30,566 nt of DNA, from positions 4,434 through 34,999 of the forward strand of contig DTUW01000178.1 in assembly GCA_012963895.1 (NCBI GenBank), given 5' to 3'. Positions 5,160-28,391 of this stretch are shown piece by piece (the first letter of the stretch is position 1; every line of letters begins with the position of its first letter). This stretch comes from Campylobacterales bacterium. Lineage in GTDB: Bacteria > Campylobacterota > Campylobacteria > Campylobacterales > Thiovulaceae. Under the pieces are notes generated by a model. The model searched no databases. It had not been told where the DNA came from and worked only from the letters and a program-made list of their open reading frames with translations. Both the position numbers and the translations under genes were made by a program.

Positions 5160-6983
5160 ATGGGAAAAGCTGATATTTTTGGAGAGGCACTCTGGGACCA
5201 ATATTCCAGCAAAGTTGCCGATAGAATGAACAACCCAAGACACATGGGAGAGATTACAGAAGAAGAGGCAAAAGAGAGAGGCGGAAAACTTATCGTAGCC
5301 GATTACGGGGCTGAAAGTTGTGGAGATGCTGTCCGTCTCTTCTGGTTAGTCGATGAGAAGACAGATAAGATAGTAGATGCCAAATTCAAATCCTTTGGGT
5401 GTGGAACAGCTATCGCCAGTTCAGATATGATGGCTGAACTCTGTATAGGTAAAACAGTAGATGAAGCGGTGAAAATTACCAATTTAGATGTTGAAATGGC
5501 TCTTAGAGATGACCCAGATGTTCCAGCTGTTCCAGGTCAAAAGATGCATTGTTCACCATATTTCATGCCTGTCCAAACTCCAAAAGGAAAAGTCGAAATA
5601 GGCAAAATTCAGCCGGGTGATGAGGTAGCTGTATATACAGCTAACGGAATAGTAAATTCCAAAGTAAAAAGAGTAATTAGCTACAAAACTCATAAAAGTA
5701 ATTTGGTTCGTCTCTATTTGAAGACCGCCAATGGTGGAGTTCCGGGCTTCTATGTCTTCACAAAAGACCACCAGCTATTAGACAATCAAGGTAATTGGGT
5801 TTTTGTTGAAGACCTGAAAAATGGTGATATTGTCTCTCATGTCCATGAAAGCGAATTAGACATGCAATATGCCAAACTTGGAAAACCGAGAGGTAGCTCT
5901 AAGGGTGAGAAAAACTCTCTTGAAGCTAAATATGAAGAGTATTTCAAAAGTCGAAATTTACCTATTAGATTTGTAGGTGATGGCTCTTTTTGGAGATGGA
6001 ATGGTGATAGAAGTTCTTCTATGAATCCAGATTTTGTTTTTGAAAATGAAAACAAAGTCGTAGAGGTTACAACTTCTAAATTACCATTTAGAGATTTTGA
6101 GCAATACAAGAGAGAGAGGGTAGAGAGTTTCGCTGAAATAGGCTTTGATTGCTATGTAATAGATGATATGAACTTTGATGAGGTCGATTTCAATAATTGG
6201 ACTCACAATGGATATATTGTCTCACCTTATAGAGATTTGGAAGGGGTTCATGAATTGACTCCAAGAGATTGGGGAACAATCGAGAGAAACGGCTATAAGA
6301 TTGAGATAGATGAAAATGACATGGTAACTGTCTATACTCTTGAAGTGGAGCATGAAGCTCATAACTATATTCAAAATGGAGTTATCTCTAAAAACTGCTC
6401 AGTTATGGCTTACGATGTTATTAAAGAGGCGGCAGCGATATATAAAGGGGTTGATGCAGATTCCTTTGAAAGAGAAATTATTGTATGTGAGTGTGCTAGG
6501 GTCTCTCTTGCCACTATCAAAGAGGTAATTAGACTAAATGACTTGAAGACAGTTGAAGAGATAACCGATTATACAAAAGCGGGGGCATTCTGTAAATCGT
6601 GTATCAAACCGGGAGGACACGAAGAGAGAGAATATTACCTAGTCGATATTCTCAAAGAGGTGAGAGCCGAAATGGAGCAAGAGAAGTTGCAACAGGCAGT
6701 TGAAGCCTCTTCTAGTGGTAACTTTGAGGAGATGACCACCGTCCAAAGATTGAAGGCTATTGAACAGGTAATAGATGAATCGATTAGACAATTCCTAATA
6801 GCTGATGGAGGTAATTTGGAGATTATCGATATTAGAGATAGCCAAGATGGATATATAGATGTCTATATCCGCTATCTAGGAGCTTGTTCTACTTGTGCCA
6901 CCTCCACTACCGGCACTCTCTATGCGATTGAAACAGAGCTAAAACGGGCTTTATCCGATAGAATTCGAGTTCTGCCAATATAG
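5160..6983 (+). CDS. nifU: Fe-S cluster scaffold NifU (IscU + BFD-like [2Fe-2S] + NFU domains) interrupted by an intein; 325 aa after splicing
   Basis: IscU Cys motifs ESCGD, FGCGTAIAS and KMH...CSVMAYD, middle CEC...CKSC, C-terminal GACSTC. Removing aa131-412 restores KMHCSVMAYD. Confidence 0.95.
   Translation: MGKADIFGEALWDQYSSKVADRMNNPRHMGEITEEEAKERGGKLIVADYGAESCGDAVRLFWLVDEKTDKIVDAKFKSFGCGTAIASSDMMAELCIGKTVDEAVKITNLDVEMALRDDPDVPAVPGQKMHCSPYFMPVQTPKGKVEIGKIQPGDEVAVYTANGIVNSKVKRVISYKTHKSNLVRLYLKTANGGVPGFYVFTKDHQLLDNQGNWVFVEDLKNGDIVSHVHESELDMQYAKLGKPRGSSKGEKNSLEAKYEEYFKSRNLPIRFVGDGSFWRWNGDRSSSMNPDFVFENENKVVEVTTSKLPFRDFEQYKRERVESFAEIGFDCYVIDDMNFDEVDFNNWTHNGYIVSPYRDLEGVHELTPRDWGTIERNGYKIEIDENDMVTVYTLEVEHEAHNYIQNGVISKNCSVMAYDVIKEAAAIYKGVDADSFEREIIVCECARVSLATIKEVIRLNDLKTVEEITDYTKAGAFCKSCIKPGGHEEREYYLVDILKEVRAEMEQEKLQQAVEASSSGNFEEMTTVQRLKAIEQVIDESIRQFLIADGGNLEIIDIRDSQDGYIDVYIRYLGACSTCATSTTGTLYAIETELKRALSDRIRVLPI
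5550..6395 (+). mobile_element. Intein (282 aa, aa131-412 of NifU) with a central Vsr/DUF559-like putative homing endonuclease
   Basis: N-terminal Cys (CSPYFMPVQTPKG..IGKIQPGDEV), block B TKDH, WVFVEDLKNGDIV, blocks F/G VYTLEV..HNYIQNGVISKN|C with terminal Asn and Cys+1. Confidence 0.92.
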
Positions 6984-9049: not shown

Positions 9050-9538
9050 TTACAGACACCCTTTAAAGAATGAGGCTTTTGGAGGAGGAGGAGCTTTGAA
9101 GGTTAGAGCATAGATGGTGTTTTCATCTTCGTTGTATTTGCCAATAATCGTTACCTTATTTCTCCCAATTGCAGTATCGAGTTCATACTTTTTCAACTTG
9201 TCAGTTAGTTCAACTTTGTAATATTTCCCATCATCATGGACAAATAGAACCAACTGAACTGGTTTAGTTACACCAGGTTCAACCTCTTTATAGCACCCTT
9301 CAAAACCGCAAACATATGCTTCTGTGTAGCAACTTGAAAAAGTCCCTTTTAATGCACAATCTTCAACTGTTAAAAACCCAACTTTTTCAAATAGAGGCTC
9401 TACATTAGCTTCCTCTTCACTGCTTTCATCTTCAACCATCAAATCACTTGCAGAGATTACTACCTCTTCTTTTGCTTCTGATGCATAGAGAGAACCACCT
9501 AAGAGGAGGGCAAATATCAATGTTGTCATCTTTTTCAT
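9050..9538 (-). CDS. Exported Cys-containing hypothetical protein, last gene of the molybdoenzyme operon
   Basis: Signal peptide MKKMTTLIFALLLGGSLYA, acidic N-terminal segment, C-x8-C-x6-C-x4-C, C-terminus PPPPKASFFKGCL. Start abuts the gamma-subunit stop. Confidence 0.85.
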   Translation of the reverse strand: MKKMTTLIFALLLGGSLYASEAKEEVVISASDLMVEDESSEEEANVEPLFEKVGFLTVEDCALKGTFSSCYTEAYVCGFEGCYKEVEPGVTKPVQLVLFVHDDGKYYKVELTDKLKKYELDTAIGRNKVTIIGKYNEDENTIYALTFKAPPPPKASFFKGCL

Positions 9539-10747
9539 CTATTTCTCCTCGTCTGCTTTCAATGTTTTCAAATAGGCGACAATATCATTTAGAGTTTTAT
9601 CATCTAGCCAGTTGAATGGTGGCATTGCTGAAACTCTTTTTCCGTTTTCTAAGTTATACCAAGGGGTATTTTTGTGAGCATTTCTGTTGTAGCCAGGGAC
9701 AACAACAGCATTTGGCTCTTTGATGGATTCAACCAAATACCCGACTGTCGCCTGTCCTCCAATATTGCTCAAATTAGGAGCCATATATGGAGGTGCCATG
9801 TTGAAATCTTTTGTATTGTGGCAAGCTGCACAGTTGGTTTGGAACTGGACTTTTCCATTTGCCACATCACCTTTCACCTCATCATTTAGAGCGGAAACCA
9901 ATTTATCTCCACCCTCTCTCCCTTCAAGTTGAACAGAGTTCCAACCCGAAAGAAGTTTTAGACCGTCTCTATTTCTCTTATCTCCGTCCCAGACTGCGAA
10001 AGCCACAGGGAAAGCTGGAGAATCTAGATTTAGATATTCATCTTTTAGAGGTCGTGATAGTGTAGATTTCCAACACCCTTTGGTGATGTTATACATCATT
10101 TCCATATTGGAATCTACTGAACCATCTTTTACCTCTGTCATACTTCTAAATCCAGCAGAGATAAAGGTTCTCTCATAATCGACAACAGCAATATCTTTTA
10201 CTTCGCTGTCGAATTTCGCCAAGTCTTCACCAAAATAGTTTGTATTGTGTCTATTGACTTGGTGAGCTACATCTCCATGGCCGTTTGGTTCATAGGTATT
10301 TGGAGCTGCTTTTTGAAGATGGATTAGAACCTCTCTCCCTTCTGAACCCATTCCAATATATGGTAGTTTGTCAGGATTCGAGTAATTAACAGGGAATTGA
10401 ACAGCTACCCCATCTCCAAAAGAATCACTTCTATATCCCTTTTGGATAGAGAGAGTTTTATCTTTCCATTTGATAAGGAAAGCTATCTCTTTATCGTTGT
10501 AAAGAGCTTTTACTTTTATGTTCTTACTGCCATTGTGGGAATTGAGTTCATTGGCTATTTTGTCGTTTAGTTTTATAGTAGTTTGCGGATATACTGGGAT
10601 TACTACCAATTTTGCCTCATACCACAATGGAGAGAGGGGAGATATATCTTTTAGAGAGTGTTCAACTTTGGAAGCTACGATATTTGCCCCCGATAAGGAG
10701 GAGGCGAGAAGCCCCGCCACTGCACTTGATAGAGCTAATTTTTTCAT
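9539..10747 (-). CDS. Type II DMSO-reductase-family gamma subunit (EbdC/SerC-like heme b DOMON domain) fused to a C-terminal cytochrome c
   Basis: Signal peptide, LIKWKD, DGVAVQFP, YIGMG (Met ligand), AFAVWDG..RDGLK (Lys ligand), then CAACH (9818-9832) with distal SAMPPF. Confidence 0.88.
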   Translation of the reverse strand: MKKLALSSAVAGLLASSLSGANIVASKVEHSLKDISPLSPLWYEAKLVVIPVYPQTTIKLNDKIANELNSHNGSKNIKVKALYNDKEIAFLIKWKDKTLSIQKGYRSDSFGDGVAVQFPVNYSNPDKLPYIGMGSEGREVLIHLQKAAPNTYEPNGHGDVAHQVNRHNTNYFGEDLAKFDSEVKDIAVVDYERTFISAGFRSMTEVKDGSVDSNMEMMYNITKGCWKSTLSRPLKDEYLNLDSPAFPVAFAVWDGDKRNRDGLKLLSGWNSVQLEGREGGDKLVSALNDEVKGDVANGKVQFQTNCAACHNTKDFNMAPPYMAPNLSNIGGQATVGYLVESIKEPNAVVVPGYNRNAHKNTPWYNLENGKRVSAMPPFNWLDDKTLNDIVAYLKTLKADEEK

Positions 10748-11853
10748 TAATGGTGTCCTCCGGCTACTGAAAAGTGGGAAATAGTTTTAGTGTGAGCCCC
10801 TTTGATATATCTAGTATCAACAGGAGTAACTGCATCTAGTCCTTTGCTTTTTGCTACTTCTTGGTAGTAGTTGTTATCAAGTCTAAACATTTCAGAGTGT
10901 TGGTAAGCGATGAGAATATCAAGAATCTCAGATTTACCTGTTTTTCTTCTCTTCTCTCTCTCTTCTCTAATAGTTTTGACCACTCGATGAACTTCTGGAC
11001 CAAATAGCTTTTCAAGCTCCTCCATTGGGATTCTGTCTGAACCTTCAATTACCTTGCCATCAGCATCAAACTTAGGAGGTGCTTCGGTTGGAGGAATGTA
11101 ATAGACATTTGGCTGAGTTCCATAGTCTGGTCTAAGTGGTAGAGCCACTTTATATTTATGAACCAACTTATGAACCTGTGATTCTGGGTCATCTAGGAAA
11201 CCGACGAATCTAATTCGTCCAACACACTGTTGAGCACAAGCTGGTGGAAGTCCTTTTTCAACTCTTGGGAAACAGAGAATACATTTTTCAGACTTCGAGA
11301 TTTTAGGATTGAAATAGACCTTTTTGTATGGACAACCAGCTATACAATATCTATATCCTTGACATCTATCCAAATCTACGAGAACAACCCCATCTTGGTC
11401 TCTTTTGAAAATAGCATCTCTTGGACAAGCCGAAAGACAACCAGGATTGGAACAGTGGTTACAAATTCTAGGAATATAGAAAAAGTAGTTATCAGACGGG
11501 AAATTCCCCGCCCCTTGGTCTTCGTCCCAGTTTGGTCCCCAAGTTGGCTCAACATTAGGGGTCATAGTCTCACCGAGAGCGAGAGACTCATAGTTGTAAT
11601 CCCAAGGCACACCATAATCGGCTTCTAGATTAGGGATTATCCCCTCTTTTAGTTCTCCACTCTCATCGAAACCACCTCCAAGCTCTTGCCAGTTTTTAGG
11701 ATAACCGGCACCCGGATAGGTCTCAACATTATTCCAATACATATATTCGCGACCATTTCTATTGGTCCATTGAGTTTTACAAGCTACGGTACAAGTTTGA
11801 CACCCAATACATTTATTGAGGTCCATTACCATTGCTAATTGTCGTTTAGACAT
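10747..11853 (-). CDS. Type II DMSO-reductase-family Fe-S beta subunit (NarH/SerB/EbdB-like)
   Basis: DLNKCIGCQTCTVAC, WNNVET, CNHCSNPGCLSACP, CQGYRYCIAGCPY (3Fe-4S type), CILCFPR..PACAQQC, LPLRPDYGTQPNVYY. Confidence 0.93.
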   Translation of the reverse strand: MSKRQLAMVMDLNKCIGCQTCTVACKTQWTNRNGREYMYWNNVETYPGAGYPKNWQELGGGFDESGELKEGIIPNLEADYGVPWDYNYESLALGETMTPNVEPTWGPNWDEDQGAGNFPSDNYFFYIPRICNHCSNPGCLSACPRDAIFKRDQDGVVLVDLDRCQGYRYCIAGCPYKKVYFNPKISKSEKCILCFPRVEKGLPPACAQQCVGRIRFVGFLDDPESQVHKLVHKYKVALPLRPDYGTQPNVYYIPPTEAPPKFDADGKVIEGSDRIPMEELEKLFGPEVHRVVKTIREEREKRRKTGKSEILDILIAYQHSEMFRLDNNYYQEVAKSKGLDAVTPVDTRYIKGAHTKTISHFSVAGGHH

Positions 11854-11863
11854 CTATATCCCC

Positions 11864-14758
11864 TTATACATTTGCTTTTTCGAAATTGACGGCACCATCA
11901 TAAGCATATTGGTTTCCGTCCCATAGTCCGCCAAATTTGAGATGACCCCAACCATCAGCCATTTCAAGAAGGTTGAGAGCTGTTGGAACAACTTCATTAT
12001 GCCCTTTATTGAATTTATACATATAAGGCTCCCAGCCGTGTTCCATAACCAATCCATCAGGTGGGCAAGATGAAGAGACTTTTGCCATTGCATAGAATTC
12101 ACCTAGAACATTATATACCCTAATGGTATCTCCGTCTTTGATGCCTTTCTGTTTGGCAACCACTCTATTAACTTGAATATAAGGGACACCTCTTTGAAGT
12201 CTTTGGAGAGTTCTTGAAGCTTTATAGTTAGAGTGAATTGACCATCTAGCATGTGGAGTCATAAGGGCAAATGGATAGTCGAGAGATTTTGGTCTGATTC
12301 CCTCCATTCCTGTATTGGTATGAGCTCCCATTCTAATCCAAAGTGGATGATCAACATAGAAAGTTTGTCGCCCACTAAGGGTTTCAAGTCTCTTGAATTT
12401 GAATAGGTGGTCTTCGTTTGAGTTGAATGGTTTATCTGGATATAGAGGAGAACTCTTAGCAGCCTTTTCATTGAGTTGCAAGAATCCACCTGCTTCATAC
12501 ATCTTTTCCATTGTCCAAGGAGCATACTGCTTACACTTTTCTAAGGCTGCTTCAACTGCCAATTTATCAGTTCCTAATAGAACTTCTCCTGCATCTTCTG
12601 ACTCTTCATCTGTATTGGTATATTCGTCGTAGAAGATTGTAAGGTCATGGTATCCAGGTTTAGCATATCTGGTATGGTCTGGAATTTTGGCTTTTTCAAT
12701 ATTTTCAGGTCTATTAGCCACCTCTTGGAGTTTCTTAGCTAAGAAAGCAAACATTTCCCATTCATCTTTTGCTTCACCAACAGGTTTCATATTGGCAACA
12801 GGCTTAGCTAAGTTGGTAAATCGATGGTAACCTGGTGATGTTCTAAGGTCATACACTTCATAGTGAGATTTAGCAGGTAAAAGAATATCAGCATATACCG
12901 CAGCCTCACTCATTCGATAATCGACATAGGCGAAAAACTTCATCTGTTTTAGGAATGCTTCTCGATATTTAGAACCTTTATTTCGTCTAAATTTAGAGTC
13001 GGCAACGATGATAGCAGTATCAGGTAGCCACCAAGGTTTAACCACATTGCCGTGTTCAGATTCCAAATTAGCTTTATTGTTTTCACCTTGGGCTAATAGC
13101 TCATCGAGTATCTCCAAATACTCTTTTTTAGACATACCATTTTGAGCTCTTCGAACATCTTCATCAGAGAAATACTCTTTAAATGTAGATTTACCATCAC
13201 CAAATACAAACTCACCAACGAAACCAGAACCAAATCGAGGTGCATATTTTCCAGAGAAACCAGATAATGCTCCAAGTCCTGAAAGTTGGAATTCGTTCTC
13301 TGTATTCAATCCTCCATATGGTCCCATTCTACCGGTAAGACCCATAATAGAGGCGATATTCCAAATCGTCAAAATACCATTGAAATATTTGTTTAGTGAG
13401 AATCCAGTTGTAACAGATACAACTTTTGGAAGAGCTATATCATCGGCTAATGTCTCGACTAGACTTGGATGAACTCCTGTAATTTTCTGAGTTGCTTCTG
13501 GTGAGAATGGTTCAGCATTCTTTTTCAACATCTCAAATACGGTAGTTACTCGTCGAGTTTTTCCATGGACATCTGTAATAGTCCATTCACCTTCTAACTC
13601 TGGGTCAATTCCAAAATCTGAAATTCTAAGGGTTTCATGTTCGCTTCCCTCAGTTCCCGGCATTAGAACAGGTGAATTGGTTTTTTTGTTCCAAGCATAG
13701 AACTGCTCTTCAAATTTTTCATGCTCTTCTTCATCGCTTGTATGTTCCATATCAGACCGTCTAAGAAGTCTCTTAGTCTCTACATCAACTAAGAAAGGTA
13801 GGTCTGTATAGATTTTCATAAATTCAGGTTTATAGGTTTTCTTTTTGATAATAGTATGGATTACAGACATTGCCAATATATTGTCTGTTCCAGATTTTAC
13901 AGGTATCCATAAATCGGCAGACTTGGCTGATGCATTGTATTCAGGTGTGATAATAATTACTTTTGCCCCGTTGTATTTCCCTTCCCAAACAAAGTGAGCA
14001 TCAGGAATTCTGGAAACTGACGGATTACCTCCCCAGAACACAGCAGTATCCACTGTATAGAGGAAGTCATAGGTACAACCTAAGTTACCTTCACCATAAG
14101 CCACCGCTGCACCTGAGAACATATCTCCAAGATATGAAGATGGATAAATTCTATTTGCTCCAAGTTGGGTAGAAAATCTTAGAGGAGCTCCTCTCCTACC
14201 TTCTGTTAGTAGCCCTGTTCCTGCATGAACCATCAGTTTATCTGGTCCTCGTTCAGGGTCTGAAAGAACTTCAAAAATTTTCTCAGCTATCTTAGTTCCA
14301 GCCTCTTCCCAAGAAATTCTTTTCCATTTTCCTTCACCTCTCTCTCCAACTCTCTCCATTGGATAGAGAATTCTATCTTTCTCATACATTACTTGGGAGT
14401 GTTGAACCCCTTTATTACAACCTCTCGGGTTGAAGTCTGGAATATTTGGATTGATTGAAGGGTATCTAGCCGATTGGTTCTCTCTGGTAACTACTCCATT
14501 GTGAGACCAAACTTCCCAAGCACAGTTACCTTGACAATTGACACAGTGATAGGCAAATCCATGTTCCTCTTTTTTTCCATAGGTAAAAGAGAACTCATTT
14601 CTATACATGTTTTCTGTGTATGATGTATTGCCATAGCCCTCTTTACCATTTTCGAAAGATTGAACATCTGTTTTAGCAAACAATGAACCTTGTGAAGCTA
14701 CAAGGGTAGCTGTCATTCCTGACAACTTTAAAAAGTCTCTTCTTTTCATCTTCTCCAT
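11864..14758 (-). CDS. Tat-exported molybdopterin oxidoreductase alpha subunit, type II DMSO reductase family (Nar/Ser/Clr/Ebd/Ddh clade); substrate unknown
   Basis: Twin-arginine KRRDFLK, FS0 motif HCVNCQGNC...PRGCNKG, candidate Asp ligand in YLGDMFSG, WGGNP, ADLWIP, ADILLPA, TPHARWSIHS. Confidence 0.92.
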   Translation of the reverse strand: MEKMKRRDFLKLSGMTATLVASQGSLFAKTDVQSFENGKEGYGNTSYTENMYRNEFSFTYGKKEEHGFAYHCVNCQGNCAWEVWSHNGVVTRENQSARYPSINPNIPDFNPRGCNKGVQHSQVMYEKDRILYPMERVGERGEGKWKRISWEEAGTKIAEKIFEVLSDPERGPDKLMVHAGTGLLTEGRRGAPLRFSTQLGANRIYPSSYLGDMFSGAAVAYGEGNLGCTYDFLYTVDTAVFWGGNPSVSRIPDAHFVWEGKYNGAKVIIITPEYNASAKSADLWIPVKSGTDNILAMSVIHTIIKKKTYKPEFMKIYTDLPFLVDVETKRLLRRSDMEHTSDEEEHEKFEEQFYAWNKKTNSPVLMPGTEGSEHETLRISDFGIDPELEGEWTITDVHGKTRRVTTVFEMLKKNAEPFSPEATQKITGVHPSLVETLADDIALPKVVSVTTGFSLNKYFNGILTIWNIASIMGLTGRMGPYGGLNTENEFQLSGLGALSGFSGKYAPRFGSGFVGEFVFGDGKSTFKEYFSDEDVRRAQNGMSKKEYLEILDELLAQGENNKANLESEHGNVVKPWWLPDTAIIVADSKFRRNKGSKYREAFLKQMKFFAYVDYRMSEAAVYADILLPAKSHYEVYDLRTSPGYHRFTNLAKPVANMKPVGEAKDEWEMFAFLAKKLQEVANRPENIEKAKIPDHTRYAKPGYHDLTIFYDEYTNTDEESEDAGEVLLGTDKLAVEAALEKCKQYAPWTMEKMYEAGGFLQLNEKAAKSSPLYPDKPFNSNEDHLFKFKRLETLSGRQTFYVDHPLWIRMGAHTNTGMEGIRPKSLDYPFALMTPHARWSIHSNYKASRTLQRLQRGVPYIQVNRVVAKQKGIKDGDTIRVYNVLGEFYAMAKVSSSCPPDGLVMEHGWEPYMYKFNKGHNEVVPTALNLLEMADGWGHLKFGGLWDGNQYAYDGAVNFEKANV

Positions 14759-14764
14759 ACTTTC

Positions 14765-15901
14765 CTACCTTTTGATTGGTAAATTCATATTATTACCCCA
14801 ACTATCCCAGCTTCCGGAGTAAATTTTCACATTTTTGGCTCCGAGAAGTTGAAGAGCGGTAATAATTTCAGAACCTCGTCCTGTCCCTACTTGGCAATAG
14901 GCATAAACTGTATTGTCAGTAGATATATTGAACTTCTCAAAAACCTCTTTAAGCTCTTCCGCACTCTTAAATGGTCTCTTATTATTAGCATCTGAAATCT
15001 GTTTCCATTCGATGAATTTAGCTCCCGGAATATGTCCGCCTCGTGCCACATTATCCATTTTTCTCTCACCGATAATCTCTATCATGCTTCTAGCATCTAC
15101 AATTCTATATTTGGAATCATCTCCATTTTTGAGAATATCTTCCATTGCATGTTTAACTTCTGCGGTAGTGGCAACATTCGAAGTATCTATATTTGCTGGG
15201 TCTATATGATACTCTTTTGGCTCTACCTTCTCTTTTCCTTTGATAACAAGGAGATTTTTTTGTCCAAACTCATCTAGTTGTTTTTTCAACTTGTTAGCCA
15301 ACTTCTTAGCCTGTTTAGCCTCTTTTTTGAGAGCTTTATACTCTTCTTTTGTTATCTCCCCTTTTTTCATAGCTTTCTTAGCTTTTCTTAGCTCTTTTTT
15401 CAACTTTTTAGCTTTTTTCTTAGCTTCTTTCCATTCAGCCCTCATATTCTCATATATTGGACGATTCGGGTCAAGTTGCATTATTGCATTTCTACCACCA
15501 TCAAGTATTTTCACTTTTTTATGTCCGTAACTTTTGAAAAAGTGATATACACCGGTAGCATTCGGTCCTCGATAGTCATCGTAAGCGATTACAAGAGTAT
15601 CATTATCAATACCCTTAGAACCTATATACTTCTCTGCATCATCTATACATCTAAATAGTGGTTCGCAATGGAGTCGTCCCATTCCATCTGAATGGTGCAA
15701 ATGGTGAGCAAACATACTAACTGAGCCACGAATATGACCCAATTCATAGACATCCTCGCTATCCCCTGATACAAACATTACCCCCGGTTTACCTATCAGT
15801 TTGATAGCCTCTTCTGGTGATATAAGAATATCGCTATTCTTATATCCACTCGAAAAGGAGAAGGAGGTAGCGAGGAAAATAAGAGCGATAAACTTCCTCA
15901 T
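14765..15901 (-). CDS. Exported two-domain rhodanese/sulfurtransferase with a Lys-rich linker, first gene of the operon
   Basis: Start ATG 15901 after AAAGGA, signal peptide MRKFIALIFLATSFSFS, GHIRGS..VIAYDD (inactive domain), VDARS..GHIPGA..YCQVGTGR..YSGSWDSW (catalytic domain). Confidence 0.92.
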   Translation of the reverse strand: MRKFIALIFLATSFSFSSGYKNSDILISPEEAIKLIGKPGVMFVSGDSEDVYELGHIRGSVSMFAHHLHHSDGMGRLHCEPLFRCIDDAEKYIGSKGIDNDTLVIAYDDYRGPNATGVYHFFKSYGHKKVKILDGGRNAIMQLDPNRPIYENMRAEWKEAKKKAKKLKKELRKAKKAMKKGEITKEEYKALKKEAKQAKKLANKLKKQLDEFGQKNLLVIKGKEKVEPKEYHIDPANIDTSNVATTAEVKHAMEDILKNGDDSKYRIVDARSMIEIIGERKMDNVARGGHIPGAKFIEWKQISDANNKRPFKSAEELKEVFEKFNISTDNTVYAYCQVGTGRGSEIITALQLLGAKNVKIYSGSWDSWGNNMNLPIKR

Positions 15902-15934
15902 GTGGAGTCCTTTCCTGTGAGATAAATTTGAGAA

Positions 15935-15943
15935 ATTGTAGCA
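15935..15943 (-). promoter_or_regulatory. Putative extended -10 promoter (TGCTACAAT) for the rhodanese-molybdoenzyme operon
   Basis: TGnTACAAT on the minus strand, 33 nt upstream of ATG 15901. Confidence 0.55.
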
Positions 15944-16083
15944 AAAGTTATTGGAATGCATAGGTAGTTTGGGGATTTCTGGCAATTTCATAATAAATTA
16001 AATTTATATTTATCATTTTATGAATTTCTCAATTTCACCAGAAAATATCAATATTTGTTATCAATCAGTTCCTGAATTTTAGT

Positions 16084-16089
16084 TAGAAT
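16084..16089 (+). promoter_or_regulatory. Putative -10 box (TAGAAT) for nhaD
   Basis: TAnAAT 27 nt upstream of ATG 16117, with AAAGGA RBS in between. Confidence 0.45.
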
Positions 16090-16116
16090 TTCTCAAAAAT
16101 TACAGAAAGGAACTCT

Positions 16117-20123: not shown

Positions 20124-21995
20124 TTGATGAAAGAGGTTCCATATCAGAAGATATTTAATAAGGCAGTTGAGCGAGTAATCCTCTCCTCTCTCATATTTCA
20201 ACCTGAATTTATCGAGGACTATATATCTGAAATAGATGAAGATGATTTTTACTTTCCATTCCATCGCGACCTATTTAGTGCGATGGTAAAGCTTGTAAAT
20301 AGTAAAAAAATAGTTACAGAAGAGCTATTAAAAGAGGAGTTGGAAAAAGAGGGGAAATTTCAAGAGGAGGAGTTCCTCAATATCCTATTAGAAGAGCCTG
20401 TAACCAAGTTGGAATACTATATCAAAGAGTTGAAGAATAAAAGCACTAAAAGAAAATTTTTACTACTTGCCAAAGAGATAGAGAATGCAATATTAGAGCA
20501 GGATTTAGATAGTTCCGAACTTATCGATTTTGTGGAAAGTCAAGTATATAAGATAGGACAAAACAACACTATCAAGGATTTCAAAAATAGTGATGAAGCG
20601 GTAGAGCTTACAAAAGAGTATATAGAGAAGATGAAAAATAGAGAGAATAAGAGCATTACAGGAGTTGATACAGGCTTTTTTGCTTTAAACAAAATGACAA
20701 CTGGATTTAATCCGGGTGATTTGGTAATTATCGCTGCTCGTCCCGCTATGGGTAAAACTGCATTTTCTCTAAATATCGTCTATCACTCTCTGAAACAGGG
20801 TAACGGAGTAGCCTTTTTCTCTCTGGAAATGCCGGTAGAGCAGTTGATGCTTAGGTTGTTTAGCATCGATTCTCTGATAGAACTCCAAAAGTTGAGAACA
20901 GGGGATTTGTCAGATGCAGAGTGGCAGATGCTCTATCAATCTATGGAGAAGTTTAGAAACTATAAACTATTTATAGATGATGATAGCGGTATCAATATCA
21001 ACCAGCTAAAAACTAAACTTAGAAAGTTGAAATCGAAAAATCCAGAAATTGGATTAGCTGTTATAGATTACATTCAAATTATGGGTTCAACAGGTTCAAA
21101 AGATAGACAGGCAGAGGTTAGCGAAATTAGTAGAGGGTTGAAACTCTTAGCAAGAGAGTTGAATATCCCTATCTTAGCCCTCTCACAACTGAACCGCTCA
21201 TTAGAAGCGAGAACCAATAAGAGACCTATTATGAGCGATATTCGAGAGAGTGGGTGTCTTGCGGGGGATACTCTAATTTTCAATACCAGAGAGAATAGAT
21301 ATGTTCGACTTGATACGATTGTCAAGAACCGAGATACCCTCCTCCCTTTTCCAACTTATGGAATGGACGAAAATAGAAATATTAGAGAGTTCAATATTAT
21401 CAACGGCTTTTTTTCAGGAGTCAAATTTGTCTATCTTCTCTCAACCTCATCACATCAGATTAAAGCCACAATAGAACACAAATTCTATACCTCCACCGGC
21501 TGGAAAGAGTTGGGAGATATTCAGATAGGTGAAGAGATAGCCATATTTGAAGATGGCAAAGTAGCCTGGGAAAAAGTGGTATCTATCGATGAGGTCGGAA
21601 ACATGGAAACTTTCGATTTGACTATTGAAGAGGTTCATAACTTTATAGCTAATGGAATTGTTGCTCACAACTCGATAGAACAAGATGCTGACATTATCCT
21701 ATTTGTCTATCGAGATGATGTATATAAGTTGAAGGCTGAAAAGGAGAAAGAGAAGGAGGCAAAGGCACAGGGTAAAAAGTATATCCCGCAAATTGAGGAA
21801 AAGAGCGAGGAGGTCGCCGAAATCATTATTGGAAAACAGCGAAATGGTCCAACAGGAGTTGTAAAGTTGAACTTTATCAAATACCAAACCCGATTTGTAG
21901 ATATTACCGATAGTTTTAGCGGTATTGATGAAGAGATTCAAACCTCTACTAAGATAAATATAGATGGCGATATGGTTGATATACCACCAATCTAA
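20124..21995 (+). CDS. dnaB: Replicative DNA helicase DnaB with mini-intein; 484 aa after splicing
   Basis: Walker A AARPAMGKT, FSLEM, VIDYIQIM, LSQLNR, DIRESG|...|SIEQDAD, KQRNGPTG. Confidence 0.97.
   Translation: MMKEVPYQKIFNKAVERVILSSLIFQPEFIEDYISEIDEDDFYFPFHRDLFSAMVKLVNSKKIVTEELLKEELEKEGKFQEEEFLNILLEEPVTKLEYYIKELKNKSTKRKFLLLAKEIENAILEQDLDSSELIDFVESQVYKIGQNNTIKDFKNSDEAVELTKEYIEKMKNRENKSITGVDTGFFALNKMTTGFNPGDLVIIAARPAMGKTAFSLNIVYHSLKQGNGVAFFSLEMPVEQLMLRLFSIDSLIELQKLRTGDLSDAEWQMLYQSMEKFRNYKLFIDDDSGININQLKTKLRKLKSKNPEIGLAVIDYIQIMGSTGSKDRQAEVSEISRGLKLLARELNIPILALSQLNRSLEARTNKRPIMSDIRESGCLAGDTLIFNTRENRYVRLDTIVKNRDTLLPFPTYGMDENRNIREFNIINGFFSGVKFVYLLSTSSHQIKATIEHKFYTSTGWKELGDIQIGEEIAIFEDGKVAWEKVVSIDEVGNMETFDLTIEEVHNFIANGIVAHNSIEQDADIILFVYRDDVYKLKAEKEKEKEAKAQGKKYIPQIEEKSEEVAEIIIGKQRNGPTGVVKLNFIKYQTRFVDITDSFSGIDEEIQTSTKINIDGDMVDIPPI
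21255..21671 (+). mobile_element. DnaB mini-intein (139 aa, aa378-516), no endonuclease
   Basis: CLAGDTLI start, ATIEHKF (TxxH), WKELGDIQIGE, TFDLTIEEVHNFIANGIVAHN|S. Insertion site RESG|SIEQD is that of the Ssp/Rma DnaB inteins. Confidence 0.96.
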
Positions 21996-24128: not shown

Positions 24129-24179
24129 GGGCTATTTTTGATAATATTCTAAATGTTCTATGTTAAAAAAGGAGTAAAT

Positions 24180-26318
24180 ATGTTGCTATTTAGGTATCTG
24201 GCAATTTTTTGGGTTTTAGCTTCCCTTCTATTTTCAGCACCAATAGATGAAAAGAGAGTATTAGTTTCTAAAATAGGTGCAAACAAATACAAAATGAGAC
24301 TATATTTCAATTACGAAAACCCTTACAATACACAGGCTACATTAGTTGGGAGAAATGCTCAATATGATGTAAATATACCTATTCCAGATAAATTCGATGT
24401 TTTGCATATGTCTTTAAAGATGAAATATATACCATCTCTCCTTTTGCAACACACCCGTTCAGTGATTGCAGTTCATGCAAATGGACATATAGCGAGACAA
24501 TTCAGATTGAACCAAAGCAAATTCAAAGATAGCGGAGTTACAACGATAACTTCAGATATTCCAACAAATTTTTTGTTGGATTACAACAAGATTGGGGTGA
24601 AAATTATTCAACACTATGCTAGTGGTCCTAGTGAGGATACATCGGTTCCTGAGCTATGGACACAATTAGACTTGCACCATAGTTATGTAGAGATAGTTTT
24701 CAAACTGAAAGAGTTCAAAGAGAAACTTAGTTCCATCTCTAAATTTGTCCTAGACCCAAAAGAGGTATTTAAAGAGACTCTAAATTTTGTATTTCCAAAA
24801 TATCCAAAAGATGGTGATTTCTTCAATTACGGCTTTTTTGCCCATTTTGCCGGGCGAACTTTGAAATTTAGAGATATAGATTTTTCAGTATCTACCAAAA
24901 TAGATGATAGACGAAACAACATCATTATCATGCCTCGTAAAGATTTGAAAAAGGTTTTTGAAAAATATGATATTAAGGATTTGGATAAGAAGATTTCGGG
25001 TAATATCAATGTAATTCAAAATCCTCACCGCCCTGAAAAAGGATTTATAGTAATTACAGGAAAAGATGAGAAAGAGATAAAGAATGCTCTATTCAGATTG
25101 AATAGCGACCTATTCCTATTAGATGAACAAAATATAAAAGTTGTCTCTATTGAAACTCCTCCACCTGCTCAACCATACTCTGCACCTGGATATATACTAC
25201 CTGGAAGCAAAGTATATTTTTCAGAACTTGGATATAAAACAAAGACATTTAGCGGAGAACAGCCAGAAAATCTATTCCTAAATTTCAAGATGTATCCAAC
25301 AGTTGACTATAACGATAATGATATGATTCAAGTTGTTATCAAGACGATAAATAGCAAAATACTAAGAAACGACTCAGCCATCAATGTATATATCAACAAC
25401 AATTTTGCATACCAATATAGAATATCAACAAATGAAAAAAATGACATCTACAATGCAGGATCTGACCAACAGTTCGAACTAGAAAACAGAAACTCTATTC
25501 CAAGTATTCTACTTAACAAAGGTCGAAATAGCTTGAAGATGGATATTACAATGTTCCCTATTGGTGGTCCTGCTCTTGTGAGATTTAACAACAAAATTCT
25601 AAAACTTATTATTCGAGATGACTCTTACTTAGTTTTCCCAGAGGCTCAAACAGAAATTGAATATCCAAATCTCCAATATGTAAAAGATTTGGCATTCCCA
25701 TTCTCTATCTATCCGGATTTACAAAATACAGGTATTTTGATTACCGACTTTGATAGTAGAACTATTGCATCAGCAATGTATGTTGCATTCTTCTTAGGAA
25801 AATTGGTCGATTATCCAGCCTATTACCTAACTATCACTCCTGATATTAATAAGATGTTGAAAAAAGATATTATCAGTGTTGGAAAGCAGGTAGAGCGGTT
25901 CGCCCTTCTATATCAAAATGCTCCTCTCAAATTTACAAAAGATGGATTAGTTAAAGAAATATCACTAGGTAAGAAATATATAGAGGTCAATGGTAAAAAA
26001 GTTGAAAAGTCTTTTGCCTCTGCCAAGATTGTTGAGAATGTAAATCTCAACCACTATCTCATTGTTCAAATGTATCAATCTCCATTTGATGAAAAGAGAG
26101 TTATTTTAGAAATTTCAGCAAATAATCCAGAAACCCTATATAAGGGAATTAAAAACGGATTTACCCCTGTTCATATGGGAACATTCCAAGGAGATACTTG
26201 GCTCTACAATGTAGATACCAATAAATCTCGTTCGTTCAGATTGCAGGATAGCTACACCCTCCATCAACTAATAGAAGGTGATAATATGTATGGAGAAGAT
26301 GATTTTATTGAAGAATAG
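24180..26318 (+). CDS. bcsB: BcsB-like periplasmic polysaccharide-secretion co-polymerase, paralog 1, no C-terminal TM anchor
   Basis: Start ATG 24180 after AAGGAG, signal peptide. BcsB-like motifs LLDYNKIG..QHY..ED..PELW, APGYI..VYFSELG, YPNLQ..FPFSIYPDLQNT, YQSPFDEKRVIL..FQGD. Family assigned from a remembered BcsB alignment. Confidence 0.8.
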   Translation: MLLFRYLAIFWVLASLLFSAPIDEKRVLVSKIGANKYKMRLYFNYENPYNTQATLVGRNAQYDVNIPIPDKFDVLHMSLKMKYIPSLLLQHTRSVIAVHANGHIARQFRLNQSKFKDSGVTTITSDIPTNFLLDYNKIGVKIIQHYASGPSEDTSVPELWTQLDLHHSYVEIVFKLKEFKEKLSSISKFVLDPKEVFKETLNFVFPKYPKDGDFFNYGFFAHFAGRTLKFRDIDFSVSTKIDDRRNNIIIMPRKDLKKVFEKYDIKDLDKKISGNINVIQNPHRPEKGFIVITGKDEKEIKNALFRLNSDLFLLDEQNIKVVSIETPPPAQPYSAPGYILPGSKVYFSELGYKTKTFSGEQPENLFLNFKMYPTVDYNDNDMIQVVIKTINSKILRNDSAINVYINNNFAYQYRISTNEKNDIYNAGSDQQFELENRNSIPSILLNKGRNSLKMDITMFPIGGPALVRFNNKILKLIIRDDSYLVFPEAQTEIEYPNLQYVKDLAFPFSIYPDLQNTGILITDFDSRTIASAMYVAFFLGKLVDYPAYYLTITPDINKMLKKDIISVGKQVERFALLYQNAPLKFTKDGLVKEISLGKKYIEVNGKKVEKSFASAKIVENVNLNHYLIVQMYQSPFDEKRVILEISANNPETLYKGIKNGFTPVHMGTFQGDTWLYNVDTNKSRSFRLQDSYTLHQLIEGDNMYGEDDFIEE

Positions 26319-26328
26319 GTAATTGGAA

Positions 26329-28388
26329 ATGGCAATCAGAGTATTTGTATTACTACTATCATTAGCCCTCCTTTTGGAGGGTAAAGAGGTAAAAAAAAAA
26401 GGGTTATAGTATCCCAGATTGGTGATAACCTCTATCGGTTGAGAATATATCTCAACTACGAGAATCCCTATAAAACCAAAGTTGAACTCAACCAACAAGA
26501 TGGAAAACTGAAATTTCCTCTACCTATCCCAGATAGGTATAAAGTTGTCAAAATCAGAGAGTATATCCGATATACTCCTGGTTTGGCGACAAAATATCAA
26601 GGCTCTTACTTCTTAGGTCTCCTCAACGGAAATATTATCTATCAATCTAAACTAATTACCGATTTGGGTCGTCGCAAGGCAAAAAGTGTCAAATTTGATG
26701 TTCCAATTGATAAGCTGTATGAAGGCTACAACAATTTAGATATTGCTATCTACCAAAGTCCAGTTGATGGAGGATACAACCAGAAGGGATTTCCATCTGT
26801 CTGGACTCAAATTGATATCGAAAATAGCTATATTGAGATGGACTTCTCCGTCCAAGATTTTGAGGAAAAACTAAGTTCAATCTCTAAATTTATGTTTGAT
26901 AACAAGTCAATCATCAAAGGCAAAGTAAATTTTGTTTTACCAGCTGTTCCAACAGAGACCGATTTCTACAATTATAGTTTTATGGCATATGTAATTAGCC
27001 ATATCTTGAAATTTAGAGATATTGACATCTTTGTATCTACTCGAATAAATAACAATATGCATAATGTCATTATTGCCCAATGGAGCAACCTCTCCAAAAT
27101 TGTTCAAGATAGAAGAATATTGGACAAAGTCAAGGGCAATCTCAATATAGTTCGAAACCCAAATAATCGCAAAAATGGAATCTTGGTCATTACTGGCAAC
27201 TCTCAACAAGAGCTAATCAATGGACTTTATACCCTCTTGGATAAAGATATAGAGATTTTGGACATTCCATCAATTAGAGTTGCAGAGTTCAAAGTTCCGC
27301 CGAAAGCTCCACCACTTTCAGGTAAAGGCTTTTTTCCATTTGATAAACCAGTGAAGTTAGAAAGTTCTATTTTTCAAAATGGCTCTATCTACTCAAAAAA
27401 CTCAGCTTCTATGTTTGATGGAGACTTCAAAATATATCCTATTGTAAATTTCCGAAATAGCGATAACAAGCCTATTACTCTAAATTTGAAATATTTCGCC
27501 TCTCAATCTCCAAACTTACAACTAAGTTGTAACATATACCTTAATGGTATCTTGGCATATACCACTATGCTTCACAACAATATCCAAGAAAACTCGGAAG
27601 TTCTATCTGAAAATATCACCTTCTCCCCTATCCTTTTAAAACCTGGATTGAACCATATTCGTATCAAATTGACTCACTCCAAAAGTGAAGATATTAAAGC
27701 TAAGATTTTGGAAAGTTCCACTATCACAATCCCAAAAGCTGAACCAGAGACCAAATTACCAAACTTGGAATATATATCCAAGTTGGCTTTTCCATTTTCC
27801 ATCTATTCAGATTTACAGGATACAGGTGTTCTAATTACAGATTTTCATGCCAATACAATTGCTTCTGCTTTTCAGGTTGTTTTTCAACTCGGAAGGCTCA
27901 TGAAAACTCCGCCTTACTATCTGACAATGACATATGATATAAATAAGATATTGGATAAAAATATTATTGTTGTAGGACCTCAAATATCCAATTACAAAGT
28001 TCTATATCAGAATGCACCTATAAAATTTATTCGTGGTGGTATCATAAAAGAGCAATATATCAAAGAGCTAAATAAAACCATTAGAACCAGAGAGATAGCC
28101 GATTTCTCCAATATCCTATTTGCCCAAACCTACCAATCTATTTTTAACCCAAATAGGATAGTTTTCGAACTAACCGCACAATCACCTAAAACACTACTTA
28201 AAGGGGTTCAAAATGGATTTGTGCCTATCCAACTCGGAAATTTTAAAGGTGATGTGTGGCTCTACAATATAGAGACAGAAGACCAACAATCATCTAGATA
28301 TAGAAAAAGCTATATTGCCGATGAGGTTTTCAAAGGGTTCAAAAATATCTATGCCGATGAAAAATATCTCGATATTGAGAACTTCTAA
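26329..28388 (+). CDS. bcsB: BcsB-like paralog 2, frameshifted at a poly-A tract just after the signal peptide
   Basis: ATG 26329 gives MAIRVFVLLLSLALLLEGKEVKKK, then TAG at 26407. The -1 frame continues RVIVSQIGDNLYRLRIYLNYENP, matching the N-termini of paralogs 1 and 3. Contains FPFSIYSDLQDTG and YQSIFNPNRIVF. Confidence 0.8.
26391..26400 (+). repeat. A10 homopolymer at the frameshift point
   Basis: Ten consecutive A. A11 or A8 would restore the frame. Confidence 0.9.
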
Positions 28389-28391
28389 ATC

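Follow-up and report, generated by a model that had tools for sequence, protein, structure and literature searches.

Only three systems, namely SoxCD, reverse Dsr and sHdr, at present account for how sulfane sulfur that is stored or bound to a carrier is oxidized completely. In Sulfurimonas, soxCDY2Z2 alone is reported to suffice for the oxidation of elemental sulfur (S0), as a stand-alone module to which the present operon can be likened (PMC12403661). All three systems are missing in Thiovulum (PMC9938260), and soxCD is missing in Sulfuricurvum (PMC4288042). Here, a five-gene operon was analyzed that is a concrete candidate for this gap. It is located at positions 9050-15901 on the minus strand of a stretch of 30,566 nucleotides (nt) of contig DTUW01000178.1 (assembly GCA_012963895.1, a Campylobacterales bacterium of the Thiovulaceae); this whole stretch is called the window, and positions refer to it. 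Judging from the sequences and their distribution, the chances are about even that the operon encodes a carrier-protein-dependent sulfane-sulfur dehydrogenase, which would replace the function of SoxCD-SoxYZ with unrelated parts.

The operon consists of five tightly packed open reading frames (ORFs), which encode a rhodanese, the alpha, beta and gamma subunits of a molybdenum enzyme and a small protein called X (Rhd-A-B-C-X). The intergenic gaps are 6, 10, -1 and 0 nt, from the rhodanese to X, and the beta/gamma junction reads TAATG. All five products are predicted to be exported. The initial annotation had already described a tight minus-strand operon with these five products, and both the layout and the domain assignments (two rhodanese domains, an alpha subunit exported by twin-arginine translocation (Tat), an iron-sulfur (Fe-S) beta, a haem b/c gamma and an exported Cys protein) held in the family scans. 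The features are the following:

14765 to 15901, minus strand: exported tandem-domain rhodanese, 378 aa, with a Sec signal peptide (PF00581, 9.6e-27)
14876 to 14896, minus strand: active-site loop of the rhodanese, C-QVGTG-R, a seven-residue CX5R loop versus the classical six-residue CRxGxR
11864 to 14758, minus strand: alpha, 964 aa, Tat-exported catalytic subunit with molybdenum-bis(pyranopterin guanine dinucleotide) (Mo-bisPGD), type II dimethyl sulfoxide (DMSO) reductase family (Molybdopterin and Molydop_binding domains)
10747 to 11853, minus strand: beta, 368 aa, four-cluster Fe-S electron-transfer subunit (TIGR03478, 523.5 bits versus a cut-off of 480.7; PF13247, Fer4_11)
9539 to 10747, minus strand: gamma, 402 aa, with a Sec signal, an EB_dh haem b domain (PF09459, 3.6e-29) and a fused class I cytochrome c (PF00034, 3.9e-11)
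9050 to 9538, minus strand: protein X, 162 aa, exported, new family, with four nearly invariant cysteines (C61, C70, C77, C82)
9053 to 9091, minus strand: arm at the C-terminus of X, PPPPKASFFKGCL-COOH, in which TGT at 9056-9058 encodes the penultimate Cys161

The gene order was compared in 78 related loci, wherever the contig was long enough. The order Rhd-A-B-C-X recurs in essentially all of them, and thus the five-gene arrangement is more than chance. These loci carry the names Sulfurimonas, Sulfuricurvum, Sulfurovum, Hydrogenimonas, Sulfurospirillum and Thiovulum. All five genes are kept together across two phyla, the Campylobacterota and the Aquificota. The window itself belongs to a metagenome-assembled genome (MAG) of 1.34 Mb (178 contigs, 81% complete), and its alpha subunit is 90% identical to that of Candidatus Thiovulum karukerense and 85% identical to that of Ca. 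T. stygium. In this 81% complete genome no SoxB, no SoxY and no enzyme of the sulfite oxidase (SUOX) family was found, which argues for the operon as a substitute of SoxCD. NapA was not detected above the cut-off in the MAG; ccoN is present.

The distribution of the operon was compared with that of the sox genes in 400 species genomes of the phylum, each of which was searched for alpha, SoxB and SoxC. The counts were restricted to 117 genomes from non-host-associated (free-living) Campylobacterota families, and relatedness was judged via family and genus codes only. Alpha is present in 38 genomes and SoxC in 61; only 2 contain both and 20 contain neither. The alternation is sharpest among the 64 SoxB-positive genomes: SoxC is absent in 14 of the 16 that contain alpha and present in 47 of the 48 that do not (Fisher's exact test, p = 3.6e-11, uncorrected for relatedness). 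Among the genomes without SoxB, 22 have alpha and 12 have SoxC. The alternation is also seen at close range. One genus (g10) has 17 SoxC-positive and three alpha-positive members with zero overlap, and the same was found inside another genus (g42) and between genera of the families f4, f7, f8 and f12. This recurrence within genera and families indicates several independent switches. In the second phylum, all four Persephonella-type Aquificales genomes with the operon are SoxB-positive and SoxC-negative. This mutual exclusivity, repeated in a second phylum, again argues that the operon substitutes for SoxCD.

The operon is also physically linked to sox genes, which argues in the same direction. 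In genome G032, soxX-Y-Z-A-B is followed by genes for a porin, cytochrome c-thioredoxin, DsrE-like and DUF302 proteins, then by maturation genes and Rhd-A-B-C-X-TorD-polyferredoxin, and there is no soxCD. Nitratiruptoraceae-like genomes have the operon beside soxXYZAB without soxCD, and in five genomes of family f9 it lies 7-15 kb from soxB. Further sulfur genes accompany the deeper relatives (YeeE as well as SoxH-like, DsrE, DUF302 and thioredoxin genes), which supports a role in sulfur metabolism; YeeE stands beside the operon relatives in Persephonella and in a lineage with a 42% identical alpha. Nearly every genome of the Nitratiruptoraceae-like and Hydrogenimonas-like families contains the operon, as do all Thiovulum genomes. 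The initial annotation had proposed an uncharacterised periplasmic type II molybdoenzyme with thiol carriers for a sulfur, selenium or arsenic substrate. The first part stands, and the second could be narrowed: the exclusivity with soxCD and the adjacency to soxXYZAB point to a sulfur substrate and to the oxidative direction.

Oxidation of sulfur could also mean that the operon encodes a sulfite dehydrogenase. In that case the rhodanese would split thiosulfate, the molybdenum enzyme would oxidize free sulfite in a two-electron reaction, and X would pass the sulfane on to S0 or polysulfide. This is unlikely. The rhodanese is indeed nearest to thiosulfate sulfurtransferases, YeeE-type thiosulfate/sulfur channels adjoin operon genes in two lineages, a SUOX-family sulfite dehydrogenase was not found in this genome, and the haem b/c route would suit a low-potential donor. 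However, 11 of the 38 operon genomes also hold a SorA-like SUOX-family enzyme (weak TIGR04555 matches, 160-196 bits), the exclusivity concerns SoxC specifically and not the genes for sulfite oxidation, and the invariant tail of X is hard to account for if X never reaches the Mo site.

That tail is the most conspicuous feature of the putative carrier. The sequence PPPPxKSFFKGCL-COOH is nearly invariant across about 60 orthologs, and the remainder of X is 34-73% identical. The X protein of Persephonella, which was missed by tblastn, ends with GFFKGCL, and the X-like protein of the lineage with the 42% identical alpha, a high-GC lineage with the order X-like-Rhd-YeeE-A-B, ends with ISKSCL. The tail is absent only in one lineage (loci L081 and L085), in which the catalytic Cys of the rhodanese is replaced by Ser; this is one correlated loss. 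The invariant arm with its penultimate Cys, lost together with the catalytic Cys of the rhodanese, argues for a carrier role of X, and we propose that Cys161 is the substrate-carrying thiol on a flexible arm tethered by poly-Pro. No Pfam or NCBIfam family matched X, and its database relatives, all 143 of which are named 'hypothetical' and have no Pfam domains, come from Campylobacterota and Aquificota only. An AlphaFold2 model (predicted local distance difference test score 79.5) has a beta-rich core and a low-confidence tail. A Foldseek search against the PDB returned only weak matches to oligonucleotide/oligosaccharide-binding (OB) folds (E at least 0.03), and no likeness to SoxY, DsrC or TusA was seen in it.

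The two loci without the tail (L081:5901-12465 and L085:4964-8851) represent a divergent, low-GC, fast-evolving Campylobacterota-like lineage; both are flanked by genes for DUF302, SoxH-like metallo-hydrolase, DsrE-like and thioredoxin proteins, and in L085 alpha lacks the FS0 segment and is not followed by a beta or gamma gene. In many X orthologs the signal peptide is followed by an xGCG that resembles a lipobox; X of the window lacks this motif, and X of Persephonella marina is named 'Lipoprotein' in UniRef. Judging from these sequences, X may be anchored to the membrane in some lineages but a soluble protein in Thiovulum. In a Persephonella MAG (L063:3134-14900) the order is Rhd, YeeE, a small single-domain rhodanese ending with GGGGGCL, A, B, C and X. 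There, X is followed by PsrB-like and NrfD-like genes and a second Tat-exported molybdopterin enzyme, and thus this is a composite operon with two molybdoenzymes.

The putative partner of X is the rhodanese, an ortholog of which is encoded immediately upstream of alpha in 69 loci. Its gene starts with the ATG at 15901, preceded by AGGAAAGGA, which was read as the ribosome-binding site; a longer ORF reaching up to 15991 was rejected because the extension is not conserved. The nearest solved structures are tandem thiosulfate sulfurtransferases, e.g., 1uar and 3hwi. The N-terminal domain, which has a conserved CxPL[YF]xC pair and a Lys-rich helical insert, is predicted to be inactive, and the C-terminal domain is predicted to be active. 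The fold and the catalytic Cys are present, but the active-site loop has seven residues versus the six expected for PF00581 sulfurtransferases, and in the alignment with 1uar and 3hwi its Arg falls one position later. The loop reads C[MQH]VG[ATL]GR in 69 of 69 orthologs, CHVGLGR in Persephonella and CNVGVGR in the high-GC lineage. On the chromosome of Ca. Thiovulum stygium the rhodanese is encoded in two pieces, ORFs of 132 and 210 aa (L004:4850-5991), which explains the published '6-gene operon' with a rhodanese 'pair'.

The alpha subunit has the Tat motif RRDFLK, and its twin-arginine signal reads MEKMKRRDFLKLSG... The FS0 ligands H71, C75, C79 and C114 as well as the Mo ligand Asp212 (codon 14123-14125) are invariant in 72 orthologs, and D212 aligns with D170 of PcrA and D223 of EbdA. 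Against TIGR03479 alpha scores 752.6 bits, which is under the cut-off of 984.75 (the ClrA/SerA-like representative P0131 reaches 1334), and thus it is a divergent branch and not a core type II member. The scores with solved structures are 368 bits for PcrA (4ydd), 295 for EbdA and 190 for NarG. When representatives were clustered at 50% identity, the Campylobacterota clade formed one cluster; beyond it, the identity drops to 48%, 42%, 39% and 37% for the next relatives and then levels off at about 34%. The identity with the ClrA/SerA-like representative is about 37%. By comparison, SerA is 83.6% identical to ClrA (PMC12724226).

A maximum-likelihood tree was calculated from 895 columns (LG+F+G4), in which the clades were labelled indirectly by NCBIfam scores, PDB matches and one PGAP name. 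The alpha clade and Persephonella group together with 100/100 support. Successive outgroups are P0129, the locus of which is associated with a rhodanese, YeeE and an X-like protein, then P0130, which has a classic A-B-D-C operon without rhodanese and X, and then the ClrA/SerA-like pair P0131 and P0135. All of these are split from the EbdA-like and the PcrA-like/NarG-like groups, again with 100/100 support. Alpha is therefore a separate deep branch within a super-group of ClrA/SerA-like representatives, as far as labels from hidden Markov model scores and one PGAP name define that group, and on the same labels it is not nested within a characterised clade. A perchlorate or chlorate reductase was rejected as an identity of the enzyme: the aromatic gate of PcrA (F164, Y165, W461) is not kept, with F164 and Y165 replaced by Pro and Ser, chlorite dismutase (Cld, PF06778) was not found in the 81% complete genome, and alpha does not nest with the ClrA/SerA-like or the PcrA-like sequences. 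In four genomes that are otherwise complete (G034, G040, G190, G344) the alpha gene is broken by frameshifts or stop codons (TAA, TGA), which suggests that the system has recently decayed in part of the lineages; SoxB is retained in G040.

In the literature these genes are regarded as genes for a nitrate reductase. The operon of Ca. T. stygium was described by Bizic et al. (PMC9938260) as rhodaneses, narG, narH, a cytochrome c-related gene and an unannotated gene, and was read as a nitrate reductase bound to the membrane (Nar) and present in all Thiovulum. According to the same study Thiovulum has no sox, dsr, apr and sor/sulfite dehydrogenase genes, the operon is expressed in situ, and the operon-linked rhodaneses are expressed about 5-fold above other rhodaneses. 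Hamilton et al. (PMC4288042) listed 'Nar' for Sulfuricurvum PC08-66, S. kujiense and RIFRC-1, all three of which lack soxCD; two sequences of the present dataset (P0031 and L058) derive from PC08-66. Automated names of alpha include nitrate/nitrite oxidoreductase, dimethyl sulfide (DMS) dehydrogenase and chlorate reductase. Published and automated names contradict each other; the initial annotation had already cautioned against automated labels. No description of the module beyond 'nar' labels was found in the open-access literature.

A nitrate reductase or nitrite oxidoreductase, as suggested by the papers on Thiovulum and Sulfuricurvum and by pipelines of the KEGG style, is highly improbable. 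The automated name 'nitrate reductase / nitrite oxidoreductase alpha subunit' and the papers that say narGH or Nar speak for it, many operon holders reduce nitrate, and nitrate is a possible substrate of PcrA- and ClrA-type enzymes. However, alpha reaches only 235 bits against TIGR01580 (narG), with a cut-off of 1084, and the tree separates it from the NarG-like and PcrA-like groups (100/100). It is Tat-exported, and the operon contains no NarI anchor and has a gamma with EB_dh and cytochrome c instead. A rhodanese, a Cys-arm carrier and YeeE would have no role in such an enzyme, and most holders belong to groups reported to use the periplasmic nitrate reductase Nap (PMC4288042).

A reductase for selenium or tellurium oxyanions (selenate, selenite), either respiratory or for detoxification, is distinctly unlikely. 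Here, the rhodanese and the thiol of X would trap the reactive product, selenite or Se(0). Alpha falls into the super-group with the ClrA/SerA-like representative, the rhodanese weakly matches the rhodanese ExtH of a selenite/tellurite operon, and seven-residue rhodanese loops are linked to atoms larger than sulfur. Moreover, Sulfurospirillum includes selenate respirers, S. halorespirans encodes X, and selenate is a high-potential acceptor compatible with a cytochrome c donor. But the exclusivity with soxCD and the contiguity with soxXYZAB would be left unexplained, and the operon is nearly universal in some families and occurs in all Thiovulum, whereas selenate is a trace compound. In addition, the identity of more than 67% among the Campylobacterota is suggestive of a core function.

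Beta is 71-88% identical to its orthologs, and alpha and beta together are predicted to contain the Mo-bisPGD and five Fe-S clusters. In gamma, the axial ligands of haem b, M133 and K264, align with M108 and K201 of EbdC, and haem c is coordinated by C306-A-A-C309-H310 (9818-9832) and M375. All six haem ligands are conserved without change in 66-67 of the 67 gamma orthologs, and gamma as a whole scores 97.6 bits against TIGR03477 (cut-off 169.85). The combination of Met/Lys haem b and fused cytochrome c is an arrangement of the DdhC/EbdC/SerC class, the members of which transfer electrons to or from cytochrome c, and fits a low-potential donor.

The gamma subunit also bears on another alternative, namely that the operon encodes a reductase for sulfur species (tetrathionate, thiosulfate, polysulfide) or a component of sulfur disproportionation. 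The rhodanese and X would then deliver polysulfide sulfur, similar to Sud-PsrABC. Precedents for the delivery of sulfur from a rhodanese to a molybdoenzyme are Sud/Psr and SbdP/SR (cited in PMC12998232). Furthermore, several holders (Nitrosophilus, Hydrogenimonas, Sulfurospirillum) are hydrogen-oxidizing reducers of S0 or thiosulfate. However, an NrfD/PsrC-type anchor that oxidizes quinol is missing, and there is a soluble Met/Lys haem b with cytochrome c instead. Because this haem b class is high-potential in characterised enzymes, the reduction of a low-potential sulfur couple would be unfavourable. Thiovulum is a microaerophilic sulfide oxidizer, and the exclusivity with an oxidative enzyme, SoxCD, would not be explained. 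A reductive sulfur enzyme is therefore distinctly improbable.

The preferred reading is thus a sulfane-sulfur dehydrogenase. In a more specific form it would be a new system in which the Mo-bisPGD dehydrogenase oxygenates sulfur on the Cys arm of X, the CX5R rhodanese loads and/or unloads the arm, and the whole is a non-orthologous replacement of SoxCD-SoxYZ; the probability of this form falls somewhat short of even. What the enzyme acts on, in which direction it works, what the tail does and how the product is released are inferred. First, the rhodanese would take sulfane sulfur from polysulfide, S0, thiosulfate or the persulfide of SoxY and load it onto Cys161 of X. Next, the tail of X would enter the funnel of alpha, where the terminal sulfur would be oxygenated stepwise from water, up to X-Cys-S-SO3-. 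The electrons would flow from Mo via the Fe-S clusters and then through haem b to haem c, from which they would enter the cytochrome c pool and reach the cbb3 oxidase or denitrification enzymes. In genomes with SoxB the sulfate would be released by SoxB. In genomes without SoxB, including Thiovulum, the release might be via the CX5R rhodanese, or the product might leave as sulfite.

Several observations weigh against a dehydrogenase for sulfane sulfur. The seven-residue CX5R loop is typical of enzymes of the Cdc25/Acr2 type, not of sulfane transferases. The operon occurs in 7 of 13 genomes of genus g27, which probably is Sulfurospirillum; members of this genus have the operon without Sox, and Sulfurospirillum is known chiefly as a reducer of sulfur, selenate and arsenate. 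The only two genomes with both SoxC and the operon, G144 and G336, belong to this genus. Nitrosophilus alvini carries the genes, with a 77% identical alpha (P0073), and is described as a strict hydrogen oxidizer, for which S0, sulfide and thiosulfate did not serve as donors for growth (PMC7728183). The reference clades of the tree were labelled indirectly, and a shared niche could in principle yield the anti-correlation of the operon and soxCD.

The initial annotation had noted that characterised type II operons include a TorD-like chaperone gene, and none is present in the operon of the window. A PF02613 NarJ/TorD-type chaperone and a polyferredoxin follow X in 55-56 of the 78 loci, and orthologs of both (64% and 38% identical) were found in the genome of the window on contig C71, adjoining rpsL and rpsG. 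Thus, the system has its chaperone, which is merely unlinked in this genome. The same genome has a second, remoter pair of TorD-like protein and polyferredoxin (L001, G000:C151:1-3270), with identities of about 35% and 30% to the pair that is linked to the operon elsewhere; it presumably serves another molybdoenzyme. In about 48 loci a divergent Mrp/NUBPL ATPase, an unknown protein of 123 aa and an LRV/HEAT protein are encoded upstream.

The operon is flanked by housekeeping genes, i.e., nifS, intein-bearing nifU, fapA, nhaD, serS, mgtE and intein-bearing dnaB. The upstream region is the following:

15902 to 16116, no strand: intergenic stretch without ORFs that separates the operon from a divergent antiporter gene, which scores as NhaD

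The promoter of the operon is presumed to lie in this region. An AT-rich stretch with TGATAAAT is present at 16008-16015, but the 'extended -10' promoter that had been annotated did not find statistical support, since a scan for promoter and terminator consensus sequences yielded sites no more often than in shuffled sequence. NhaD was rejected as a part of the system because it is an ordinary NhaD that is not conserved with the operon. Elsewhere in the window, the genes for NifU (607 aa, 5160-6983) and DnaB (623 aa, 20124-21995) have Intein_splicing matches and are thus intein-bearing, and three successive BcsB-like ORFs of 721, 649 and 672 aa are present at 24153-30410, with no bcsA seen in the window.

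New in this study are the exclusivity of the operon and soxCD, the adjacency to sox genes, and the correlated loss of the rhodanese Cys and the tail of X. If the more specific reading, a dehydrogenase for sulfur on the arm of X, is true, it would explain the oxidation of S0 to sulfate in Thiovulum, Sulfuricurvum, Persephonella and others without SoxCD, Dsr and sHdr. The operon would encode a new carrier-protein family and the first enzyme of the DMSO-reductase family that acts on protein-tethered sulfur. In addition, 'narG' counts of Campylobacterota in metagenomes would reflect sulfur oxidation and not nitrate reduction. The claim of a membrane-bound Nar in Thiovulum and Sulfuricurvum rests on these genes, and the reading would amend this recurring annotation; pipelines that tally narG/nxrA in sulfidic habitats probably miscount them.

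The operon was compared with four known systems. First, it shares with NarGHI the superfamily, the Asp ligand to Mo and the FS0 motif, but NarGHI faces the cytoplasm and has the membrane anchor NarI, and the NarG-like sequences form a separate clade. In Sud-PsrABC of Wolinella succinogenes, a periplasmic sulfur transferase of the rhodanese type serves a Mo-bisPGD enzyme in a campylobacterotal host, as would be the case here. In contrast to the operon, PsrA belongs to another clade, and Psr has an NrfD-type membrane anchor, is reductive and has neither a Cys-arm carrier nor a haem subunit.

The nearest labelled group in the tree is that of DdhABC, SerABC and ClrABC. The common features are the alpha-beta-gamma composition, the Tat signal, the HX3CX3C FS0 motif, the Asp ligand to Mo, a gamma with Met/Lys haem b, a chaperone of the NarJ/TorD type, and a periplasmic, soluble enzyme coupled to cytochrome c. 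The differences are the low identity of about 37%, the score of alpha under the TIGR03479 cut-off, the fusion of gamma to cytochrome c, and the addition of the rhodanese and X.

The last comparison is with SoxCD-SoxYZ, encoded by soxCDY2Z2 in the Campylobacterota. Both systems are periplasmic and combine a molybdenum enzyme and a c-type haem with a dedicated carrier, putative in the case of X, for a substrate on a Cys near a flexible C-terminus. Both are found beside soxXYZAB or alone, and their phyletic distributions are complementary. However, there is no homology. Alpha belongs to the Mo-bisPGD enzymes of the DMSO-reductase family and does not have the SUOX fold, and this operon adds an Fe-S beta, haem b and a rhodanese. 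No SUOX-fold domain (PF00174 or TIGR04555) was detected in the operon or elsewhere in the MAG; the proposed relationship with SoxCD is a functional analogy only. X in turn has no PF13501 match, an OB-like core (weak matches) and the tail FFKGCL in place of GGCGG of SoxY. X may work like SoxY, although it is not a member of that family.

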